Below are positions 27,661 through 55,611 of a stretch of DNA of 55,611 nt, one piece after another. The stretch's first letter is position 1, and every line of letters starts with the position of its first letter. The position numbers and the translations under genes were made by a program. The notes under the pieces were generated by a model. It had not been told where the DNA came from. It saw only the letters and a program-made list of their open reading frames with translations, and made no database searches. The stretch comes from a virus. Lineage: Duplodnaviria > Caudoviricetes. The stretch covers positions 1 through 55,611 of the IMG/VR virus record IMGVR_UViG_3300020042_001002. One strand, 5' to 3'.

Positions 27661-27991
27661 CTCTGTAATCCCCTACCTTACGATCATCATCTACTTCATC
27701 AAGCCATGCGTCTTCATCATAGGGATCACTATCATCAATGTTCTCTTCAAGATGTACATCATGCCCAGCAATCTCTAAGGCTTTCTTCATACCCTTGATG
27801 AAGTTCTCCCACGTATCTATGTCCATGTCCTCATCCCCTCCCTCATTTAGCACACCACCAAACTTATCGTCTCGTGAGGTAGACCATACGTGCTGACCAT
27901 TCTCATAAAGATGGATAACGAAGTGAGTACCAGAACCGCAGCACTCGCAGTACCAGTTGGTTGTCGTAAGGCTAATTGTGTAGTGGCTCAT
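27647..27991 (-). CDS. Acidic hypothetical protein with CxCC motif
   Basis: ORF overlapping both neighbours. Confidence 0.55.
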   Translation of the reverse strand: MSHYTISLTTTNWYCECCGSGTHFVIHLYENGQHVWSTSRDDKFGGVLNEGGDEDMDIDTWENFIKGMKKALEIAGHDVHLEENIDDSDPYDEDAWLDEVDDDRKVGDYRDDLL

Positions 27992-29067
27992 TCCTTGTAC
28001 CCTTTCCTAGATGCTTGTGCTGTCTTAGCCCCCTCATACGTATGCTTCATGTATGGGTTGAGACTAGAGATGTTCTTGTGGCCTGTCACCTGCATAATTC
28101 CCGTGCTGTCAACCCCCGCTGCTACGAACTCAGTGATGGCAGTCTTTCTCAGATGACCAATCTTTAATTCCTCTGGTAGTCCACACGCTTCCTTCACCTG
28201 TCGAAGTATAGGGCCAATCGCCATCGGGTTCAAGGGTACATATGCTTTGTCAGATGATCTATGGTTAGGGATGACTAACTTTTGGAACCCATAGTCAGCC
28301 TCTTGTTGCTTAAGCAGGGACAACAGTGAACCCTCAATAGGCATCTCTACCTCAGCCCCACGCTTGGACTGCTTGATCTTCACCTTGGCACGAGTGAGGT
28401 CGAGGTTGCTCCACTGTAGGTGTGTAATGTCTGTAGGTCTTTGCGCCCACTCATAGCACATCATCACCAGTAAGCCTATGTTTCTCCACTCGAACTTAGT
28501 AAAGGCAGTGGCAATGAATAGTTCTACCTGTGCCTGTGTCCAGATGGGTGTGTATGCCTCATGCTTAACCTTCTTCACCCTGCCCATAGGGTTGTCGCTG
28601 ATGAGGTCCAGTGACCTTGCATAGTTCAGAACGACAGAGAACAACCTCGCCCTCTCGTTAGCCTTAGCCACTGTGTGTGCCTGTACCCAAGCCTCATACA
28701 CATCGTTGCAGATACGTGCTGTCAGCCTGTCCAGTGGCATCTCACCAAGGGTGGACAAGGATACCTTAGCTAACTCTATCTCGTACTTGAGTTGGGATGA
28801 TGGGGCTAGTGATACGAAGTGCTTAGATGCTAGATAGTATCCGATAATATGTTTGATCTTTGAGGTCGGACCTACTGTGCCAGCCTTGATCTCACCCTTA
28901 CGATAAGCCTCAATAGCCTCAAGCAAACGGGGAACTTCATACCTTGCAGTGCGACCATCACTGAACGTCTGCGACTTAACTACACCAGCCTTACGGGCTT
29001 CCTTTGGTGGGGTGAACCTGTGTACTGTCGTTCCATCCTTCAGCAAAACCTTCTTGGTGTACTTCAT
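27988..29067 (-). CDS. Tyrosine recombinase / integrase
   Basis: Likely start ATG 29067 after AGGAG; catalytic R (AQRPTD), K, HxR (GHLRKT), H (TGH) and Y (NPY) all present. Confidence 0.88.
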   Translation of the reverse strand: MKYTKKVLLKDGTTVHRFTPPKEARKAGVVKSQTFSDGRTARYEVPRLLEAIEAYRKGEIKAGTVGPTSKIKHIIGYYLASKHFVSLAPSSQLKYEIELAKVSLSTLGEMPLDRLTARICNDVYEAWVQAHTVAKANERARLFSVVLNYARSLDLISDNPMGRVKKVKHEAYTPIWTQAQVELFIATAFTKFEWRNIGLLVMMCYEWAQRPTDITHLQWSNLDLTRAKVKIKQSKRGAEVEMPIEGSLLSLLKQQEADYGFQKLVIPNHRSSDKAYVPLNPMAIGPILRQVKEACGLPEELKIGHLRKTAITEFVAAGVDSTGIMQVTGHKNISSLNPYMKHTYEGAKTAQASRKGYKE

Positions 29068-29075
29068 GTTGTCTC

Positions 29076-29090
29076 CTACTGTCGACACTA
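29076..29090 (-). repeat. Collapsed variant of the early-region hairpin repeat (CTACTGTCGACACTA)
   Basis: Same flanks as the six full copies with the centre deleted; abuts the recombinase RBS. Confidence 0.65.
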
Positions 29091-29110
29091 AAAATAGTAG
29101 AAGGTAGCAC

Positions 29111-29139
29111 TTGCCCTTTGTCTGAACCTGTGCTACCCT
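29111..29139 (+). promoter_or_regulatory. Putative antisense-oriented promoter
   Basis: TTGCCC-N17-TACCCT with TG extension. Confidence 0.35.
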
Positions 29140-29141
29140 CA

Positions 29142-29212
29142 ATCTCTTTATGTATACTTAAAGAGATACTTAAGTAATATTACTTATTAAGAATAAGTAC
29201 TTAAGTATTCTT
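29142..29212. repeat. AT-rich stacked palindromes (possible origin or recombination site)
   Basis: TAAGTAATATTACTTA (29171-29186), TAAGTACTTA, TACTTAAGTA x2. Confidence 0.6.
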
Positions 29213-29473: not shown

Positions 29474-30322
29474 TCAGAACCTCCATGCACCCTCATCAAT
29501 TATGTTCTCAGGGTGGTACTCACCATGCTCTTCGTCGAAGCAACCATTACCACAGCATTCGTCGTAGTCCCCATACATATGGTCTTCAAGGATGTCAGGG
29601 ATTTCTGAGGGTTCAATCTCAGCCAGCACCTTGTACTCACAGACACGCATCTTGGCGAAGTCATAGTCGTAAGGCACAGCTACTACGTGGGCAGGGTTCA
29701 CCTCAACTACCACAGTACGAGAGTGGTCAGCATTAGCAAAGTGTTCGAGGTACTTATCAGCACAGATGTGCAAGCCAGACGAACAGGTATGCTTGGGGTC
29801 ATCGTCAACCATAGCACGATCCATCTTCACCACAGTACCAATGCTGTTGTCAAACTTACCAGAGTGGATGTCTTTCCAGTCCTTGCTGATACGCTTGAAG
29901 GCAATGAAGTTACCATCCGGGGTGATAGGTGCATCGAACTTTTCAAGGAACTGATACAGACATTCACGAGAACGATACGATGGGTTGAGCATCAGGTTCT
30001 TGAGGAACTTAACCCACGGCATAGCATCGAAGCCATCATCCAATAGGTCCAAGAGCTTGTCAGTCAGGGCATTATGGATTTCCTCGCCCTTGTAGTAGAC
30101 AACACCGCCCATGACCTCAACATCGTGATCATACCCAGAGGTGGACTGACGGATGTTCTCCTCACGATCCATGAGTTTGACGATAGTAGATACGTCATGT
30201 TCAGGTTGACGTAGAAGTTCAAACAGTCTGTCAAAGTTCTTGTGACCTGACACAATGGTCAGCACCTTACCATCAGCAAAGACAGTAGCCGAATAGTCTG
30301 AGAGTGTGTAGGGAATACGCAT
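29474..30322 (-). CDS. rIIB: rIIB-like protein
   Basis: NPSYRSRECLYQFL, ITPDGNFIAFK, CSSGLH, VAVPYDY, KMRVCEY. Confidence 0.85.
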   Translation of the reverse strand: MRIPYTLSDYSATVFADGKVLTIVSGHKNFDRLFELLRQPEHDVSTIVKLMDREENIRQSTSGYDHDVEVMGGVVYYKGEEIHNALTDKLLDLLDDGFDAMPWVKFLKNLMLNPSYRSRECLYQFLEKFDAPITPDGNFIAFKRISKDWKDIHSGKFDNSIGTVVKMDRAMVDDDPKHTCSSGLHICADKYLEHFANADHSRTVVVEVNPAHVVAVPYDYDFAKMRVCEYKVLAEIEPSEIPDILEDHMYGDYDECCGNGCFDEEHGEYHPENIIDEGAWRF

Positions 30323-30326
30323 TGAT

Positions 30327-32276
30327 TTACTCCTTGAATGCGTTGAGGTTGTCGATCATTTCGATGTAGTCCACGAAGGCTTGTTTCATGTCCTTCGAGT
30401 TAGGGTCTAGCTTAAGAAGGGGATACTTGTCAAGTATTATCTTCAGCTCTGCCTTCTGTTGGTTGTCGTTGAACCCACCAAGACCAAGACGGGTTATCTG
30501 TATCTCCCATTGACCATGCGTCAGGCCCAAAAACTTCTCAGGTGATTTAGCCGCAGCCTTCCTAGCGAAGTCACCTACTGGCCCAGCCAAGCCAGCATAC
30601 TGTGTGAAGTTAGTGAAGGGATACTTGTCATACCTTGCACCATAGATAGCACGTGCTGCCTTCTCGTTATCCTTAAGCAACACATCCAGTGCAGGTTCGA
30701 TCAGCTTCCACTTAGGGTTAGCCTCGAACTTCTTCCACATAGTCTTAGGTACAAGCAGGATGCAGGGAACCTTGAGCATCTCCTGAGCAAAGGAGCGCAG
30801 TTGTGTGAGGTGGTTTGGGTAGTTGTTGTTGGACATAGGGTAGTAGTACCCGCCACCTTGGAACACTGCATCATCCATAGAGTATACTTCCTGATACCCA
30901 TCAGGGTGGATGTAAGACACACTAACCTTAGACCTTGTGGTAGTACGTGGGCCAGCATCAGACAAGTCCTTCACATACTTTACAGGGTAGTCCAAGTCCT
31001 TAAGCATACGCTCAACCTCAGCCTTCTGCTTCATGTCAGACAGGTCAGTACGAACCCAGATGAAGTAGCTGTAATCCTTCAAGCTAGAAGCGATACGAGT
31101 AGCAGCACGGGCATTACTCTTCTTGTCATTCGTATCCTGAATGAAGATTGTGTAGTCCTCTTTTACCATCACATTACGATCATCACCCCAACCAACTGTC
31201 TTACCACCACGGCTACGATACCCTGAGTACAGCCCAGTGATCTGATACTCATGGCAATCCCAGTACTTAGGCAACTCCTTACCCTTGTACTTAAGGCTAG
31301 GGTCTTTGCTAGTCAGGTGGTATCGTAGCTTAGGCCCCATCTTAGCAGCCCTGAATAGCGTAGGCTGTGCATCAACCTCATCCTGCATCTTCTGGTACAG
31401 GTTAGCTGTCACCTCATCCATACGCTTCTTGATGTTCGTAGCGGTAGGATCATGGGGGCCAAACGATAAGGCTTCACGAGATGCAGTCACCTCAAGGTCG
31501 CCAATGTCAAACTGAACGACCACATCAAAGTGACGATCTAGGTACTGTGTAGGGATAGGGTACATGACGCAGCCCATCTGAGCATAAGCACCATGCAGTC
31601 GGGTATCCTTGTAGATGTAGTACCCATCACCCTCGAACACCTTATTCACCCCAGCGAATTGCTTATCCTTGGAGTTGGTCACACGGGGTGGCACAGAGAA
31701 GCCATAGGAGACGATCTCAGCGGCCTCTTGGAACTGGCGTACATCATCCCGCTTGACAGGGAAGGACACCTCTAGGCCGCTCTCCTCGTTCGTAGGCATG
31801 GGTGGTGCAAGGACATGGAGTTGGGGGGAACCATCAGGCCCCAATTGTACTGTGTAGTAGGCGATCATCCCCTTGTGACGGGACACAACAGAGAACGTAT
31901 CGGTGTATGACATAGGGGACATACGACCTACACCCCACTTACCTACCGCAGTGTTAGTGTTCTCCTTAGTGGAGTGACCAAGCACTGTGTAGAAACCTTC
32001 CATGTCCTCATGTGCAATGCCGGGTCCAAAGTCACGAACAGAGAACGTAGGGGTGATAGAGGTGGGGAAGGTCACATCGAATGGTACATCCTGCTTACCC
32101 ACCATGACATGGGCATCGAAGGCATTGGACCAAATCTCACGGGTGATTGACTGAGGCTTGTTAGAGTACAGCCCGCTGATCACCATGTGGAACATCTTAC
32201 CTGATGCTTGAATGGTGAAGGCTGTTGATGATGAAGCGTTGTTGTCTACACTGCGTAGGCTAGTGTTCATTCTCAT
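30327..32276 (-). CDS. rIIA: rIIA-like protein (GHKL ATPase N-terminus)
   Basis: LYSNK, REIWSNAFDAH, VRDFGPG, STK, GKWGVG, SREAL. Confidence 0.85.
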   Translation of the reverse strand: MRMNTSLRSVDNNASSSTAFTIQASGKMFHMVISGLYSNKPQSITREIWSNAFDAHVMVGKQDVPFDVTFPTSITPTFSVRDFGPGIAHEDMEGFYTVLGHSTKENTNTAVGKWGVGRMSPMSYTDTFSVVSRHKGMIAYYTVQLGPDGSPQLHVLAPPMPTNEESGLEVSFPVKRDDVRQFQEAAEIVSYGFSVPPRVTNSKDKQFAGVNKVFEGDGYYIYKDTRLHGAYAQMGCVMYPIPTQYLDRHFDVVVQFDIGDLEVTASREALSFGPHDPTATNIKKRMDEVTANLYQKMQDEVDAQPTLFRAAKMGPKLRYHLTSKDPSLKYKGKELPKYWDCHEYQITGLYSGYRSRGGKTVGWGDDRNVMVKEDYTIFIQDTNDKKSNARAATRIASSLKDYSYFIWVRTDLSDMKQKAEVERMLKDLDYPVKYVKDLSDAGPRTTTRSKVSVSYIHPDGYQEVYSMDDAVFQGGGYYYPMSNNNYPNHLTQLRSFAQEMLKVPCILLVPKTMWKKFEANPKWKLIEPALDVLLKDNEKAARAIYGARYDKYPFTNFTQYAGLAGPVGDFARKAAAKSPEKFLGLTHGQWEIQITRLGLGGFNDNQQKAELKIILDKYPLLKLDPNSKDMKQAFVDYIEMIDNLNAFKE

Positions 32277-32286
32277 ATCGTATCTC

Positions 32287-32311
32287 CTACTGTCGGACCA
32301 TCCGACACTAC
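32287..32311 (-). repeat. Hairpin repeat copy 1 (CTAC TGTCGGA CCA TCCGACA CTAC)
   Basis: Between the tRNA 3' end and the rIIA RBS. Confidence 0.9.
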
Positions 32312-32323
32312 ATTTGAGGAAGT

Positions 32324-32400
32324 TGGTCTACCCAAGAGGACTCGAACCTCTGACCTTGAGTTTAGAAAACTCTTGCTCTATCCAACTGAGCTATGGGTAG
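32324..32400 (-). tRNA. tRNA-Arg (anticodon UCU)
   Basis: Cloverleaf folded by hand: CTACCCA/TGGGTAG acceptor, GCTC D arm, TTTCTAA loop, GGTTCGAGTCC T arm, encoded CCA. Confidence 0.92.
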
Positions 32401-32620: not shown

Positions 32621-33015
32621 GGTGATACTCCAAATCTTAGGGTTGATGATACTCGTTTACGTTTGTAAGGGCTGTCGTCTATCCAAATGCCCTGCCTGAA
32701 CTCAGGGTCAAACAACTTACACTTACGTACCGCTATTGCATGGCCTGTGATAGTCACATGGTAGTCATAGTCCGCATTGTAGTCAGTGTTGTACCAACCC
32801 ATCAGGGTAGGCTTATCCTTGTAGTGATACTCCTCTGTCCAATTCAAGCCAAGCGCATCAATCACCAGCATCCTGTCCCAGATAGAGGTCACGTTGTCCC
32901 GTCTGCATAGGTCAAAGAACAAACGCTCTGCCTCTTGGTAGGATACATTGGCAAGCATAGCTACCGCTGCAATCCCACAGTTGTCCCTGCCATAGGGTGT
33001 GTCGTCTGGGATCAT
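32617..33015 (-). CDS. Putative papain-like (C39-like) cysteine peptidase
   Basis: DNCGIAAVAM, GHAIAV, LFDP consistent with a Cys-His-Asp triad. Confidence 0.55.
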   Translation of the reverse strand: MIPDDTPYGRDNCGIAAVAMLANVSYQEAERLFFDLCRRDNVTSIWDRMLVIDALGLNWTEEYHYKDKPTLMGWYNTDYNADYDYHVTITGHAIAVRKCKLFDPEFRQGIWIDDSPYKRKRVSSTLRFGVSP

Positions 33016-33140
33016 GGTTTCTCTAACTCCTTTCGTATCTCTGCAAGCAAGTCAGTCAGTGCCTTGTTACTACGCTCAGATGTCTTAGGTAGTAGCTTCT
33101 CACACATACCCAAGACCTTAAGTTCCAGTGCCTTAATCAT
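33012..33140 (-). CDS. Small hypothetical protein (42 aa)
   Basis: AGGAG RBS supplied by repeat copy 2; translated by hand. Confidence 0.55.
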   Translation of the reverse strand: MIKALELKVLGMCEKLLPKTSERSNKALTDLLAEIRKELEKP

Positions 33141-33148
33141 ATCATCTC

Positions 33149-33172
33149 CTACTGTCGGACCATCCGACACTA
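33149..33172 (-). repeat. Hairpin repeat copy 2
   Basis: CTAC TGTCGGA CCA TCCGACA CTA; provides the TAG stop of the upstream ORF and the RBS of the downstream ORF. Confidence 0.9.
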
Positions 33173-33391
33173 ACCTGCAAAGTGGCTGAGTTTACGGGCG
33201 GGATTACCCTTGCGCTCAAGGTATACAGTACGCTTACCCATGTGGATGGCAGTCATGCACTCACTATGCTGCACCCCCCACCCTCGTGACTTATACTTAC
33301 GCTTACGGGTCAGGCCCTTGATACCTAACACATTGAAGCGGAAGCCTTTTGTGCTGTCGTTTAGTGCCTTAGTGGCGAGGATAATGAACAT
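33170..33391 (-). CDS. Basic hypothetical early protein
   Basis: AGGAG RBS, 73 aa. Confidence 0.65.
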   Translation of the reverse strand: MFIILATKALNDSTKGFRFNVLGIKGLTRKRKYKSRGWGVQHSECMTAIHMGKRTVYLERKGNPARKLSHFAG

Positions 33392-33405
33392 CTATTTTCT
33401 CCTGA

Positions 33406-33996
33406 TCAGATGTTGTGGATACGCTTCCAGACTACCCATGTAATAGCCTGTATCTCGAATGCTTTTAAGCCAACACGTTTGCCAGCCCTCTTATAAGCAT
33501 CCTGTAGTTCCTTGTATTGACCCTTAGTGATATTAACTTCAGGTTCTGTCAAGCCAATCCGCTTACCATTGGCTATATTAAAAGCATGACCATCAACAGT
33601 ACACGTATTGATACCCATGATATTAAGGAAGAACGAGGTGATCTTCTGCCCATTAAGAACCTCAATTACCTCAGCGTCAGTGGCTGGCATCTGCTCAAGT
33701 ATTAACCATGCCTTGTCCCGCATTTTAAGGTAGGTGCTGGGCTTACACATCTCCACTGTACCACCACCCAAGAACACAGCGATCATGTCTGACGCATTAG
33801 ATACGTTACGTTCCCACTTATTGTTAGGCGAGAGTGCGGCGATCACACCAACGACAATACGAAGGGGTAGGTCATGGGCATAGGCAATGTTGGTCGCCTC
33901 ATATTGTGCTGATCCATACCATGTAGTGCCATTGTACACCTCACCTGTCGTGGCAAGGCGAAAGACTTTAAGGATGTTACGAACGATGGTAGTCAT
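33406..33996 (-). CDS. Conserved phage early protein, possibly HhH DNA-glycosylase-like fold
   Basis: WY, VIAALSP..KWERN, KITSFF.NI, TVDGHA, QAITWV motifs. Confidence 0.55.
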   Translation of the reverse strand: MTTIVRNILKVFRLATTGEVYNGTTWYGSAQYEATNIAYAHDLPLRIVVGVIAALSPNNKWERNVSNASDMIAVFLGGGTVEMCKPSTYLKMRDKAWLILEQMPATDAEVIEVLNGQKITSFFLNIMGINTCTVDGHAFNIANGKRIGLTEPEVNITKGQYKELQDAYKRAGKRVGLKAFEIQAITWVVWKRIHNI

Positions 33997-34005
33997 GTTG
34001 TTCTC

Positions 34006-34030
34006 CTAGTGTCGGACCATCCGACACATC
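34006..34030 (-). repeat. Hairpin repeat copy 3 (8-bp stem)
   Basis: GTGTCGGA CCA TCCGACAC directly before AGGAG. Confidence 0.88.
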
Positions 34031-34842: not shown

Positions 34843-35060
34843 TGGGATAACTCCACCATCTTGTTCAACACACGTTCACGATACTCATACTCATCAGCAT
34901 GAGCCTTGCACTCAGCAGTGGTAGCAGCACCAAACCTACGCACACCACAGATGTTGAGGATCATCTGACTACCACCTCCTTCCCCCACCTCATACTTCTG
35001 TCCACCCTGCCCATAGGCAACCCAGCATCCGTCCTCATGTATGATCCACTCTAGCAACAT
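34839..35060 (-). CDS. Hypothetical early protein
   Basis: ORF in frame with 34839-35078; likely start ATG 35060. Confidence 0.5.
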   Translation of the reverse strand: MLLEWIIHEDGCWVAYGQGGQKYEVGEGGGSQMILNICGVRRFGAATTAECKAHADEYEYRERVLNKMVELSQ

Positions 35061-35446
35061 CACATAAACCCCAGCCATTCACCAGCCTCATTGCGACCCA
35101 TATCTATACGCTCGTGATACTCAGCACGTTCATCACCCCAGCCATCACCATGATCATCATCATAGGAGTGACCATACGGATCGTCATCCTCTTCCTCTTC
35201 CTCATCTACTGTCGGATCGTCCGACACATAGTGCTTGGCAATCTCCCGATAGTTGATCGAACCTAGGGCAACACTGAGTAGGTCAGCCATTAGTGGATCA
35301 AGGTTATGCACACTGTCATGCAAACAGTCTACTGTCTGACGGATAAAATCCTCAGTGATCTTCTGACCACCCTCTGCCTGTTCGACAAAGGAATCCCCCA
35401 GCCACAGGTTCACAAGCCAAGTCTCATGGTTTGACCAGCCGTTCAT
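35060..35446 (-). CDS. Hypothetical early protein with acidic C-terminal extension
   Basis: NGWSNHETWLVNLW N-terminus; contains repeat copy 4 in frame. Confidence 0.65.
   Translation of the reverse strand: MNGWSNHETWLVNLWLGDSFVEQAEGGQKITEDFIRQTVDCLHDSVHNLDPLMADLLSVALGSINYREIAKHYVSDDPTVDEEEEEDDDPYGHSYDDDHGDGWGDERAEYHERIDMGRNEAGEWLGFM
35206..35230 (-). repeat. Hairpin repeat copy 4 (loop variant, intragenic)
   Basis: CTAC TGTCGGA TCG TCCGACA CATA. Confidence 0.85.
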
Positions 35447-35660
35447 AGTCCATCCTCCATTTCAAGGTTCATAAGAGTAGCCCACTCATCATCAGTCACA
35501 CCACTGATCAGAAACTCACGATCACCCACACTCAGGTGGGGCATACAGTTTTGGATCATCTGCCCACTCACCCATGCCTGATACTCATGCGGTTGCACAT
35601 CAATATCCATAGTGCGGGTGATACCTGATAGCGTCGACGTTCTAGTGATTAGCATTGTCA
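35443..35660 (-). CDS. Conserved hypothetical early protein (start approximate)
   Basis: AAGGAG RBS before MTMLITRTS; IQNCMPHLS..DREFLISG motif. Confidence 0.6.
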
Positions 35661-35691
35661 TTCTCCTTGGGGTTAAGCGGATGGTCAAACC

Positions 35692-35716
35692 CTACTGTCG
35701 GACCATCCGACACTAC
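35692..35716 (-). repeat. Hairpin repeat copy 5
   Basis: CTAC TGTCGGA CCA TCCGACA CTAC just after the stop at 35720. Confidence 0.9.
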
Positions 35717-35719
35717 AAA

Positions 35720-36001
35720 TTAAAAGTTTGCCACACCCTCATTCAACACACGGGTAAAGGCTGCATCCACCTGATCCAGATCAGTCAGCCAGATGTTCAC
35801 ACCTGTCTTACGATCATCCAGTTCGAGACGCTTGCGGGCAAAGGTGACACCCTCGTAGAGAAGGGATGCCTCAAGGTGCATATAGGTATCCGTCAAGGAC
35901 ACCAACAACACACGGGTGATATTGTGATCACACTCATCCACCCAACGCAGGTCAACGCTAGTCAACCACACATCAGCAGTTTTGATCTTCCAATCCATCA
36001 C
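35720..36001 (-). CDS. Hypothetical early protein
   Basis: 93-aa ORF overlapping the upstream stop. Confidence 0.55.
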   Translation of the reverse strand: MMDWKIKTADVWLTSVDLRWVDECDHNITRVLLVSLTDTYMHLEASLLYEGVTFARKRLELDDRKTGVNIWLTDLDQVDAAFTRVLNEGVANF

Positions 36002-36210
36002 TTCACCCCCACAATCAAGCCATCTTTCATCTTCACCTCAGCGAAGAACTCTCTGCCCACACCTGTGATATGGGGGCGATTAGCCACGACGAACGATCCC
36101 GTGGGCATATACTCAGCACCGAACAGGCTTGTCTCAATGTGACGCAGCGACTTGCCCACATTCTCTTTCAAGATTTTCTTTGACGGGTACACCACAACCA
36201 AAGTCATCAC
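35998..36210 (-). CDS. First early gene, hypothetical protein
   Basis: AAGGAG RBS; YPSKKILKENVG..IETSLFG.EY. Confidence 0.65.
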   Translation of the reverse strand: MMTLVVVYPSKKILKENVGKSLRHIETSLFGAEYMPTGSFVVANRPHITGVGREFFAEVKMKDGLIVGVK

Positions 36211-36223
36211 GTTTTCTCCTTGT

Positions 36224-36248
36224 CTACTGTCGGACCATCCGACACTAC
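36224..36248 (-). repeat. Hairpin repeat copy 6
   Basis: CTAC TGTCGGA CCA TCCGACA CTAC between the first promoter and the first RBS. Confidence 0.9.
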
Positions 36249-36267
36249 ATTTCGTTTCAGTCCATAT

Positions 36268-36296
36268 AGAATGCCACCCACCACCCTATCTGTCAA
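36268..36296 (-). promoter_or_regulatory. Putative major early promoter
   Basis: TTGACA-N17-CATTCT with TG extension. Confidence 0.6.
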
Positions 36297-36299
36297 GGG

Positions 36300-36880
36300 T
36301 TTTGGCCCACCTCTTTGTTCCATACACATCTGTATCAGCCACACACTAGCCCACCATTTATCAGCCCTTAGGGCTATACGCTCACGCCTAGGTATCATGG
36401 CACACACCACACAATAGCGGCACACACCACCACGCCCACCACCCACCACATCATGACGCACCCATGACTAGCGCACACACCACGATCACGCACACCACAA
36501 GCACAAGCCTGACAAGCGCGCCCACGACCCACCACCACCCATCTGTCATAGCCGCAGCACCACGATAGCATACACGCCTATGTAGCGCAAGCCTGTGCAT
36601 CGCCATGCCTAACGCATTGAAATCCCTAGGGATTTTACAGAATGTATCTTTACCTTTAGGTAAGTTTGGCGACAGAATCCGGGGGTTATAGTTAAATAGG
36701 GGATAGGAGGGGTGCTACAGCATCAAGTTATCTCTTGGCTAGGGTGGCCTAGGACAGCACTGTCTTAGCTCTGTATGGCTCTCCTATGGCCTCCTATAGG
36801 TATCTGGATGGTGTTACCCCCAATGCGGGTCTATCCTGATGCTAGGAGCCTAGGTGACTACAGAATTATAGATTTATTTG
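36300..36880. other. Non-coding divergence region, probable site of the physical genome ends
   Basis: No credible ORF; C/A-rich low-complexity tract and a palindrome at 36620-36635. Confidence 0.5.
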
Positions 36881-36890
36881 AAATGAGGTA

Positions 36891-36919
36891 TTGACAAACA
36901 GGAGAACTGCGGGTATCAT
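36891..36919 (+). promoter_or_regulatory. Putative sigma70 promoter
   Basis: TTGACA-N17-TATCAT. Confidence 0.65.
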
Positions 36920-37080
36920 AGTAAGATACATAATGAGATACACGATGTAGAACCATAAGGGTTCATTATGAGATACACTATGAGAAGCCTTATGAGATAC
37001 CTAAGTTAGTAATACTTAAGTTAAAAAAGCTTAAAGAACCTTAAGCTAAACATTATGTATCTCTTTATGTATCTTAAGAT
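36920..37080. repeat. AT-rich iteron-like repeat cluster (possible origin)
   Basis: ATGAGATAC x3, AAGATAC, inverted GTATCT x2, several CTTAAG. Confidence 0.6.
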
Positions 37081-37150
37081 AGGATTAGATTTCTAACTTT
37101 CAAGAGGGTATGAAAAATAAATGTTTGTGTCGTTCTCTTCAACAAAGAGC

Positions 37151-37181
37151 TTGACTCTCAGGGAACCTAAGGTATAACTAC
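37151..37181 (+). promoter_or_regulatory. Putative late promoter (leaderless mRNA)
   Basis: TTGACT-N16-TATAACTAC, ATG at 37184. Confidence 0.55.
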
Positions 37182-37183
37182 AC

Positions 37184-37426
37184 ATGAAATATTCTTTAGA
37201 CGACGATGTACTTACGAAGTTCTACAATGCTGTAGCTGATGGCGACGAGAGAAGTCTTCGTAAGGTACACATACCACGTTCAGATGTCTTCTATGTTCGT
37301 GAAGCTATTCATAATAAGACCGGAATACGATACACCCTTGACCACGTTGAGAGGGCCATGTATCTAGAGGGACACCTGAAGAAGCGGGATGTCTTTGAAC
37401 CTAATAGGAAGAGAGATTGGGAATGA
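37184..37426 (+). CDS. Hypothetical protein, first gene of the late arm
   Basis: 80-aa ORF overlapping the endolysin start. Confidence 0.6.
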   Translation: MKYSLDDDVLTKFYNAVADGDERSLRKVHIPRSDVFYVREAIHNKTGIRYTLDHVERAMYLEGHLKKRDVFEPNRKRDWE

Positions 37427-54404: not shown

Positions 54405-55611
54405 ATGCTTGGTTTTAATCCCCTAGCTTCTACCCCGCTGGGGAGCCTTCCTGCTACTGATAGTGGTCCTCCTGCTGCAATACCTATTATAACTGGTGCG
54501 CCTGTTGTTGGTAGTGCAACTCTTACCCAAAATTTTAGTTTAACTGCGGTAAATATTGCAACAGGATCACCTGTTGTTGGAACCTCTACCTTAGGTTTCA
54601 CTACTCCACTTTCTGCATCCGCCATTACCACTGGTACCCCAGAAGTCAATGCAACTACGCTTATTCAAACTTATGTTGTTGTTCTAACCTCTGGCACATC
54701 TTTTACTGTCCCCGCTAATTGGAATAATGCTGACAATAGTATTGAAGTTATTGGTGCTGGTGGCTCTGGTGCTGCTTCTCGCAATTCGGGTGTCAGATAT
54801 GCTACAGGTGGTGGTGCTGGTGGCTATTCAAAAGTTACAAACCAAACTTTAACTGGTGTAGTCCCATATCAAATAGGTACGGCTGGTGTATCTGTTGTTA
54901 GATCAGCTATTGGAAACACAAACGGGAACGCAGGTACTGCAACATTTTTTGGAAATGCACTCCAAACACTCTCACTAGTTGCTGCAAATGGCGGTGGCGG
55001 GGGTATTGCTGCACAATCAGGGACGGCTGCTGGTGGTATCGGGGCATCACTCACAGGTGCTATTGGAAGTACAAAGTACACTGGTGGTAGTGGTGGTGCG
55101 CAAACCACATCTAGTGCAGTCATTGCATTTTCCAGTGGTGGTGGCGGTGCTGGTGGGCCGCAAGGTGCTGGCAACAACGGTGTCAGTGGTAACACTGATA
55201 GTGGTACTAATGGTGGCTCTGGTGGTGCAGGGTTTGGCGGTATTGCTGGGACTGGTAGGAACTCATCCACCGGGGGTTCAAACGGGGGTAACGGGGCTGA
55301 TATTCTTTCTGCTTATGGAAGTGGTGGCGGAGGTGGTGGCCATAGAACGGTTGATGGTTCTGGAACTTATGTAGGTTTCTCAGGCGGGAACTACGGTGGC
55401 GGTGGCGGTGGTATAACCATAACTGGTGGTACTATCACATCTGGTGCTGGTGCTGGTGGCCTAATTGTTATCCGTTATGTTCCTGCAGTAACTTCAACAG
55501 CCCTAACTGCGTCTAGTATTACCACTGGTACACCTGTTGTTGACAGTGCAACTCTTAGCCAGAATCATGTTATCTCTGCAACAGAAATAACTACAGGCTC
55601 TCCTGTCGTTG
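54405..55611 (+). CDS. 5' part of the junction-spanning fibre protein (continues at 122-1449)
   Basis: MLGFNPLASTPLG start, LTSGTSFTVP Gly-rich domain, no stop before the window end. Confidence 0.8.
   Translation, partial: MLGFNPLASTPLGSLPATDSGPPAAIPIITGAPVVGSATLTQNFSLTAVNIATGSPVVGTSTLGFTTPLSASAITTGTPEVNATTLIQTYVVVLTSGTSFTVPANWNNADNSIEVIGAGGSGAASRNSGVRYATGGGAGGYSKVTNQTLTGVVPYQIGTAGVSVVRSAIGNTNGNAGTATFFGNALQTLSLVAANGGGGGIAAQSGTAAGGIGASLTGAIGSTKYTGGSGGAQTTSSAVIAFSSGGGGAGGPQGAGNNGVSGNTDSGTNGGSGGAGFGGIAGTGRNSSTGGSNGGNGADILSAYGSGGGGGGHRTVDGSGTYVGFSGGNYGGGGGGITITGGTITSGAGAGGLIVIRYVPAVTSTALTASSITTGTPVVDSATLSQNHVISATEITTGSPVV

Follow-up and report, generated by a model that had tools for sequence, protein, structure and literature searches.

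Two described kinds of repeated phage element bear a likeness to the one reported here. The PeSL cassettes of T4-type phages join a strong sigma-70 promoter to a transcription-terminating stem-loop (Arbiol et al. 2010, PMC2839356), and in the cluster A mycobacteriophages (L5, Bxb1) a known repressor binds the stoperators, which are asymmetric sites of 13 bp (PMC6550527); both are taken here as the accessible parts of these reports describe them. The DNA analysed in this study, hereafter the window, is the whole 55,611-base record of a virus (IMGVR_UViG_3300020042_001002), an HMO-2011-type podovirus of roughly 55.5 kb. Its early region carries a family of small hairpins with the 17-nucleotide (nt) palindrome TGTCGGA-NNN-TCCGACA; the window together with 21 related contigs yielded 78 copies, 66 of them non-redundant. 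A shortened copy, referred to as collapsed, sits on the ribosome-binding site of the tyrosine recombinase gene, int. Our analysis indicates that this int site is very probably a microhomology deletion scar, a dead copy of a lineage-specific leader element that consists of the hairpin and a ribosome site.

Among the described systems, the family comes closest in anatomy to the PeSL cassettes. In both, short stem-loops are repeated in a plastic early region, lie between the stop of a small gene and the next Shine-Dalgarno (SD) sequence and start codon, mostly precede genes of unknown function, and occur where gene content differs between close relatives. By comparison with the PeSL cassettes as so described, however, a TTGACAG box is found near two or three of the six window copies and at variable distance (the host's promoter consensus is not known), no T-run follows the stems, the 17-mer itself is conserved as a sequence across phage groups, and homology breakpoints are not enriched at the copies (7 of 66 within 40 nt versus 4.9 expected, in a crude test of BLAST breakpoints). 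In the logic of its distribution the family is closest to the stoperators, which likewise place many copies of one short site across a temperate phage genome, mostly intergenic and mostly in one orientation to transcription, with lineage-specific motifs that vary with the immunity group. It differs from them, on the same partial descriptions, in that the site is a 17-bp palindrome, in that no repressor is recognisable in the window, and in that both orientations occur in a second phage group, where 16 of 35 copies run with transcription. On these comparisons, the window family appears to be neither of the two systems.

The collapsed site at the int gene

The int gene (27988–29067, minus strand) encodes a tyrosine recombinase (phage integrase) of 359 amino acids (aa; PF00589, 2.6e-18) from the ATG that begins at 29067, the same start codon as is used by its close relatives (MKYTK...). 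From 29090 to 29065, the minus strand reads ...CTATTTT TAG-TGTCGACA-GTAGGAG-ACAAC-ATG and continues with AAG. The collapsed copy and its leader, at 29067–29090 on this strand, thus comprise TAG, the 8-bp palindromic remnant TGTCGACA (29080–29087), GTAG fused to the SD sequence GGAG (29079–29073, with GGAG itself at 29076–29073), the spacer ACAAC, and the first base of the ATG (29067–29065). Both flanks and the outer arms TGTC and GACA of TGTCGGA-N3-TCCGACA are retained, and the central 9 nt are gone. The flanks TAG and GTAGGAG are identical to those of two full copies in the window, at 32291 and 33153. Since the inner core CGGA-N3-TCCG is absent and only the outer TGTC and GACA are left, we class the int site as a remnant rather than a functional family member.

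The resemblance to the full repeat lies far above chance. The pattern TAGTGTC-N(0-30)-GACAGTAGG has four matches versus 0.01 expected; when the SD letters are dropped, TAGTGTC-N(0-30)-GACAGTA has five matches versus 0.02 expected, a number that none of 100 shuffles reaches, and the fifth match is the collapsed int site. The bare 8-mer TGTCGACA, by comparison, has one match versus 0.52 expected and occurs at least once in 43 of 100 shuffles. The signal therefore resides in the flanks and not in the 8-mer. These statistics and the sequence itself bear out the initial annotation, made from the DNA letters, which had described the same flanks, a deleted centre and an 8-bp palindrome; its proviso that the ribosome-binding site alone might produce the match does not hold. 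As RNA, the collapsed copy folds at -4.0 kcal/mol (z -0.81), with 38 of 200 shuffles folding equally well, and forms no family hairpin. The six full copies of the window form a stem of 7 bp with a 3-nt loop at -11.4 to -12.3 kcal/mol (z -3.1 to -4.3).

We compared the locus across 20 viral contigs that encode a homologue of the integrase. In the closest relative (L020, 86% aa identity of the integrase), a full hairpin, TGTCGGA-CCG-TCCGACA-GTAGGGGG, stands at exactly the int site. The 17 contigs with 73–74% integrase identity have no hairpin at this site, and the upstream sequence is unrelated in the two contigs with 48% identity; in total, the motif is missing from the int position in 19 of the 20 relatives. 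Ten loci share the int leader, some of them duplicating each other or loci collected before (L065 is the contig of L020). Six of these have no hairpin, two (L065 and L069) have the full hairpin, and two contain unrelated fillers. Such a mixture of fillers indicates that the spot between the leader hairpin and the int ribosome site is hypervariable, and the family hairpin is one lineage-specific filler of it. The full copy at the orthologous position in the close relatives (L020/L065 and L069) makes the window remnant homologous to it by descent.

Further support comes from a sister strain, X1, which is about 98% identical to the window. Its contig over 27900–29402 shows 29 differences and no gaps, and hence the same collapsed form, and a C>A change at 29086 breaks the 8-bp palindrome. 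In a second X1 contig, the full copy at 33153–33169 has lost 8 nt from its centre (at 33158), which is an independent collapse of another family member. The end-points of the deletion are ambiguous over CG at the int site, by direct reading of the sequence, and over GAC in the X1 copy, pointing to microhomology in both cases. Palindromic or quasi-palindromic DNA is deleted by slipped mispairing between short direct repeats. Here, similarly, the centre of a palindrome was lost between direct repeats of 2–3 nt brought together by the stem, twice independently; the palindromes concerned are short (17 nt), and that two close strains show such a loss is of slight interest. A regular-expression scan across the loci gathered to that point revealed no other convincing collapsed copy, the remaining matches resembling chance ones within genes.

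These observations can be arranged in a simple scenario. The lineage of the window and its closest relative acquired a family copy (TAG/ATA - TGTCGGA-N3-TCCGACA - GTAG fused to GGAG) in the hypervariable stretch that the conserved int leader hairpin bounds on one side and the int ribosome-binding site on the other. The sub-lineage of the window lacks the central 9 nt, presumably because of slippage between two CG dinucleotides on opposite sides of the stem, at positions 4–5 and 13–14. The remnant keeps the flanks and the ribosome site, leaving int translatable, and is drifting further in X1. On this scenario the element would have no specific tie to the recombinase, int would be one more gene that once carried it, and loss of the hairpin would have returned int to the hairpin-less state of most relatives. 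Two points weigh against this account. The L020 copy differs from the window in its 5' flank (AGATA versus TAG) and in its centre (CCG), so that the copy in the window's ancestor either came in separately or was made uniform with the other copies of the window, and the exact parent copy is inferred; and X1 is known solely as contigs from one run. The deletion scar had been one of the options in the initial annotation, and it is the one favoured by the full copy at the same spot in the closest relative, by a remnant that cannot fold, and by a strain in which the remnant mutates and a second copy collapses.

The same annotation had taken the collapsed copy to link the recombinase gene to the repeat family, and the comparison of related phages does not support this: the 19 recombinase-bearing relatives without the motif leave little of the link. 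Among five whole records with the same integrase clade, two, at 97% and 100% completeness, contain no family copy within two mismatches (G002 and G003), two hold five and six copies, and one (G004) holds two copies of the variant TATCGGA-CGG-TCCGAGA (L023 378–394 and 1735–1751), with an identical asymmetric outer mismatch in both and each before an SD sequence. Direct-repeat scans of the 8 kb upstream of int in three hairpin-less relatives (L032, L035 and L021) found no substitute palindrome. The copy-free records and the motif-free int loci together show that the repeat family is not tied to the recombinase, and its other copies stand before unrelated early genes.

Two readings would nevertheless leave the int site with a function. 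In one, the hairpins are attC-like recombination sites of the tyrosine recombinase, the collapsed copy is an attI-like or 'empty' site, as the initial annotation had also suggested, and the early region is an integron-like cassette array. There is some likeness to an integron in that hairpin-forming repeats bound groups of one to four small genes, that a tyrosine recombinase gene lies nearby with a copy adjoining it, and that gene content varies between close relatives (a 209-nt open reading frame (ORF) in X1, an extra gene in L007). However, an attC site is a longer hairpin, imperfect and with extrahelical bases, whereas the elements here are tiny perfect palindromes of 17–25 nt, and int and the nearest full copy have a RIIA-like gene, a RIIB-like gene and one small gene between them. 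The integrase itself is a generic phage enzyme. Among annotated proteins it is closest to the integrases of Roseobacter CRP phages and Puniceispirillum phage HMO-2011 (35–40% identity), and a search of NCBIfam gave no model above its cut-off and no integron-integrase model among the matches, the best being generic Xer/invertase models at 21–38 bits versus cut-offs of 220–335. Repeats and integrase clade do not go together, the repeats being absent from two of the clade's five whole records and from the ribosome site in 19 of 20 loci; moreover, breakpoints are not enriched at the hairpins, the copies remain at orthologous sites in relatives, and the supposed attI is decaying in X1. Taken together, these points make the integron reading extremely unlikely. 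In the other reading, the third option of the initial annotation, the collapsed site keeps some activity on int, tuning or autoregulating it in the manner of a weak half-operator or a minimal palindrome. The 8-bp palindrome is indeed perfect in the window and stays directly 5' of the ribosome site, but the inner core CGGA/TCCG is gone, a stem segment in which all 65 copies keep pairs 5–7 unchanged and 59 of 65 keep pair 4. Because the site also forms no hairpin, loses its palindrome through the change at 29086 in X1, has no counterpart in 19 of 20 relatives, and consists of an 8-mer expected by chance, such a residual operator is quite improbable, and the scar remains the preferred explanation of the int site.

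Hairpin copies in the window and in related phages

The six full copies of the window lie at 32.3–36.2 kb on the minus strand, each oriented like the leftward early genes. The copy that comes first in the leftward early region, at 36228–36244 (-11.7 kcal/mol), has a TTGACAG box 52 nt upstream and is followed by an SD sequence and GTG/ATG. The copy at 35696–35712 lies 7 nt after the stop of the ORF at 35720–36001, and behind it come 9 nt complementary to its own 5' half and loop. These allow another pairing, which is the minimum-energy fold of 35650–35720; the complement is conserved in L007 and L012, and the arrangement may constitute a switch-like leader for the 70-aa gene at 35443–35655. The copy at 35210–35226, with the centre CGA, lies in frame inside the ORF at 35060–35446 (DUF7249), and its arms are conserved and its centre varies in L007, L012 and L016. 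It falls just before the acidic tail of the DUF7249 protein; the arms are kept at synonymous sites in these contigs, and the central triplet gives D, G or H. At 34010–34026 (-12.3 kcal/mol) a copy precedes a DUF7178 gene (start at 33996), with a TTGACAG box 37 nt upstream. The 5' flank TAG of the copy at 33153–33169 (-11.8 kcal/mol), the one that is collapsed in X1, is the stop codon of the ORF at 33170–33391, and GTAGGAG follows the hairpin. Finally, the copy at 32291–32307 (-11.4 kcal/mol) stands 16 nt after a tRNA-Arg gene and is followed by GTAGGAG and the RIIA-like gene (start at 32276).

TTGACAG boxes thus occur upstream of the copies at 36228 and 34010 and of the tRNA that precedes the copy at 32291, at variable distances of 37–133 nt; no box of this type was recognised at the other three copies, with the limit that the host's promoter consensus is not known. 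A scan with the intrinsic-terminator consensus found three terminator-like sites, none of them at a family copy, and there is no T-run after the stems. Rfam at gathering thresholds matched the tRNA and returned no family for the repeat. Family scans of the window proteins recognised no HUH-type enzyme. As to the genes between the hairpins, content shifts between close relatives: the 209-nt ORF is missing from X1, and L007 has an extra gene between hairpins. With this skip of 209 nt (35995–36205), X1 lacks the whole 70-aa ORF at 35998–36210. Elsewhere in X1, 208 other letters replace 15 at 33392–33408.

Across the collection, conservation extends beyond the core pairs. Positions 8 and 10 are a pyrimidine and a purine in 65 of 65 copies, giving half-sites TGTCGGAY; pair 3 is mismatched on one side in 17 of 65; and three copies have the doubly compensated stem TGATGGA..TCCATCA. 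An SD-like motif and a start codon follow 12–57 nt downstream in 51 of the 66 non-redundant copies, as found with a heuristic regular expression. The flanks are lineage-specific, with GTAG in the window and GATA in L007 and L014. In the int-bearing phage group, to which the window belongs, the 3' flank is fused to GGAG and the polarity of the element follows the direction of the genes (26 of 30 copies). The second phage group has an A/C-rich leader separating the hairpin from the SD sequence; there, some copies are in frame inside ORFs, and both orientations relative to the genes occur (16 versus 19). The 17-mer is nonetheless conserved as a sequence across the two groups, whose shared proteins are 30–78% identical. 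Copies stay at orthologous sites in relatives, and variant sub-families also recur at non-orthologous sites, which indicates that the element spreads by copying or conversion. An apparent strand-specific selection on the stem mismatches (G.T 7 versus A.C 0; T.T 15 versus A.A 1) was rejected, as the variants are sub-families copied to several sites.

In a tblastn table, both hairpin-bearing groups encode two small proteins (33012–33140 and 35443–35655) that G002 and G003 lack. As candidates for factors that track the hairpin they were rejected, being simply the products of genes downstream of hairpins, with no family of known function. For the 70-aa protein of 35443–35655, an atlas look-up gave no informative match and the AlphaFold2 model has a pLDDT of 58. 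In the literature searched we found no description of the repeat in HMO-2011-type phages, although supplements might hold motif analyses; the family is an undescribed element within a known kind of phage leader elements.

The int leader, the control region and the genome

Upstream of the collapsed site, at 29100–29140 on the minus strand, lies a large conserved leader hairpin with an 11-bp outer stem (GAGGGTAGCAC / GTGCTACCTTC), a variable loop and a T-rich run after it (fold of 29050–29150: -30 kcal/mol, z -4.4). All 11 of its pairs are kept in eight of eight relatives, the seven one-sided changes are all G.U on the int-sense strand, and the loop is hypervariable. This hairpin does not belong to the small repeat family and probably represents a transcribed structure of the int leader, with a regulatory or terminator role.

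Several other repeats lie near int and in a large non-coding region. Exact TACTTAAGTA palindromes are present at 29167–29176, 29198–29207 and 37013–37022; four or five repeats of the GTATCTCATWATG type lie at 36917–37069, with one more at 29157–29169; and the motif ACATAAAGAGAT is common to the region upstream of int and the large non-coding region. These repeats could be arm sites of Int (attP) or shared promoter elements. The non-coding region itself (36250–37184) comprises about 930 nt without a convincing gene between the divergent leftward early and rightward blocks, contains G/T-rich runs (GGTGGTGGG...) as well as the repeats just named, and is likely a control or origin region.

The first and last 121 bases of the window are identical, indicating a genome that is circularly permuted or terminally redundant. 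Replication and structural genes of the HMO-2011 group are present (family A DNA polymerase, ribonucleotide reductase, PhoH, terminase and portal), and contigs 95–99% alike to the window came from three runs of lake-water metagenomes and from one further metagenome run of unspecified type. A search for sequencing runs that contain the phage listed no RNA run. The phage is probably temperate, since it encodes an integrase; in HMO-2011-type phages, int lies upstream of the replication module in some subgroups, as the available part of one report describes (ISME J 2022, PMC9038755), a text in which neither 'promoter' nor 'RNA polymerase' appears. The RIIA-like (649 aa) and RIIB-like (282 aa) genes occupy 29474–32276 on the minus strand of this podovirus of roughly 55 kb, with PHROG matches at 1.7e-106 and 5.4e-74. 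Upstream of the RIIA-like gene come the family hairpin and, before it, the tRNA-Arg(TCT) gene (32324–32400, minus strand; ARAGORN; Rfam RF00005, 65.7 bits), which lies directly upstream of the copy at 32291. Tandem repeats of 69 nt (23 codons), at least 10 units, extend over 134–1043 and 54486–55562 on the plus strand, within an ORF that spans the record ends and probably encodes a fibre or surface protein.

Possible roles of the family

What the full hairpins do is a question apart from the fate of the int copy. Judging from sequence features such as the SD-like motif and start codon downstream of most copies, the gene-directed polarity in the int-bearing group and the doubly compensated stems, we tentatively favour a role in mRNA, in which a stable stem of 7 bp with a 3-nt loop directly 5' of the SD sequence would insulate or stabilise the downstream cistron and would probably be read by a sequence-specific factor. 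Several features sit uneasily with this proposal. The 17-mer is conserved as a sequence, and not as a structure alone, across two phage groups; one-sided stem variants are common, as at pair 3; both orientations are used in the second group; several copies lie in frame inside ORFs; and positions 8 and 10 are always a pyrimidine and a purine. These five points fit a protein-bound, double-stranded palindrome at least as well.

Such a palindrome is at the centre of the first competing explanation, in which the copies are double-stranded operators of a putative phage regulator, similar to stoperators, so that a full copy would keep int under control and its collapse would have released int. This explanation concerns the function of the family alone and agrees that the int site is a non-functional remnant. 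It is consistent with a near-perfect 17-bp palindrome with a variable centre and constant TGTCGGAY half-sites, with sequence conservation across divergent phages, with the tolerance of half-site variants on one side, with a patchy, lineage-specific distribution like that of immunity types (no copies in G002 and G003, a variant in G004), and with an integrase in a phage that is probably temperate. On the other hand, no helix-turn-helix protein, repressor or other regulator was recognised by Pfam and/or PHROGs in 44 distinct window proteins, with the limit that many small ORFs have no family at all; atlas look-ups returned nothing beyond 'hypothetical protein'. The copies keep no fixed distance to -35 boxes of the TTGACAG type, doubly compensated stems coexist with canonical copies in contig L018, which a single binding specificity does not predict, and the fusion of the 3' flank to the ribosome site in the int-bearing group suggests a role at the RNA level. 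We thus regard the operators as possible but rather doubtful. N4-like phages use single-stranded-DNA hairpin promoters, which are read by an injected phage RNA polymerase. Hairpins of this kind, with the collapse removing an int promoter, would agree with the 7-bp stem and 3-nt loop, with a consensus of roughly 25 nt including flanks that is conserved within a genome and varies between lineages (GTAG versus GATA), with the position of copies before early genes, and with stem mismatches that are mild (G.T, T.T) on one strand of the element. That one-sided pattern, however, comes largely from the copying of variant sub-families, the early region has host-type TTGACAG boxes, and the second group has both orientations and copies inside ORFs. 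Searches with Pfam, PHROGs and PDB sequences recognised no RNA polymerase in the proteins of 1695, 1171, 925 and 779 aa, although a very divergent enzyme would escape them. We accordingly give hairpin promoters only a very small probability, and the mRNA role remains our tentative choice.

A broader proposal, which we consider unlikely but worth stating, is that the 17-nt palindrome and its ribosome-site flank form a self-propagating mini-element of freshwater and marine HMO-2011-type podoviruses, copied by conversion or insertion to new gene starts and even, in frame, into ORFs, shared as an identical sequence between diverged groups and read by a putative sequence-specific factor. If the proposal were true, the int locus would display every stage in the life of the element: most relatives lack it, in L020 it is born, in the window it has collapsed, and in X1 it is eroding.

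The int site itself matters little, as it is a decayed copy, and its history corrects the attractive but wrong idea that the recombinase uses the hairpins. More interest attaches to the family, a strictly sequence-conserved palindrome of 17 nt fused to the ribosome-binding sites of swappable early genes in an abundant group of aquatic phages. For this family, the int locus provides a set of natural variants in which the hairpin is absent, full, collapsed or eroded, and which are usable for finding the effect of the hairpin on the expression of the downstream gene.

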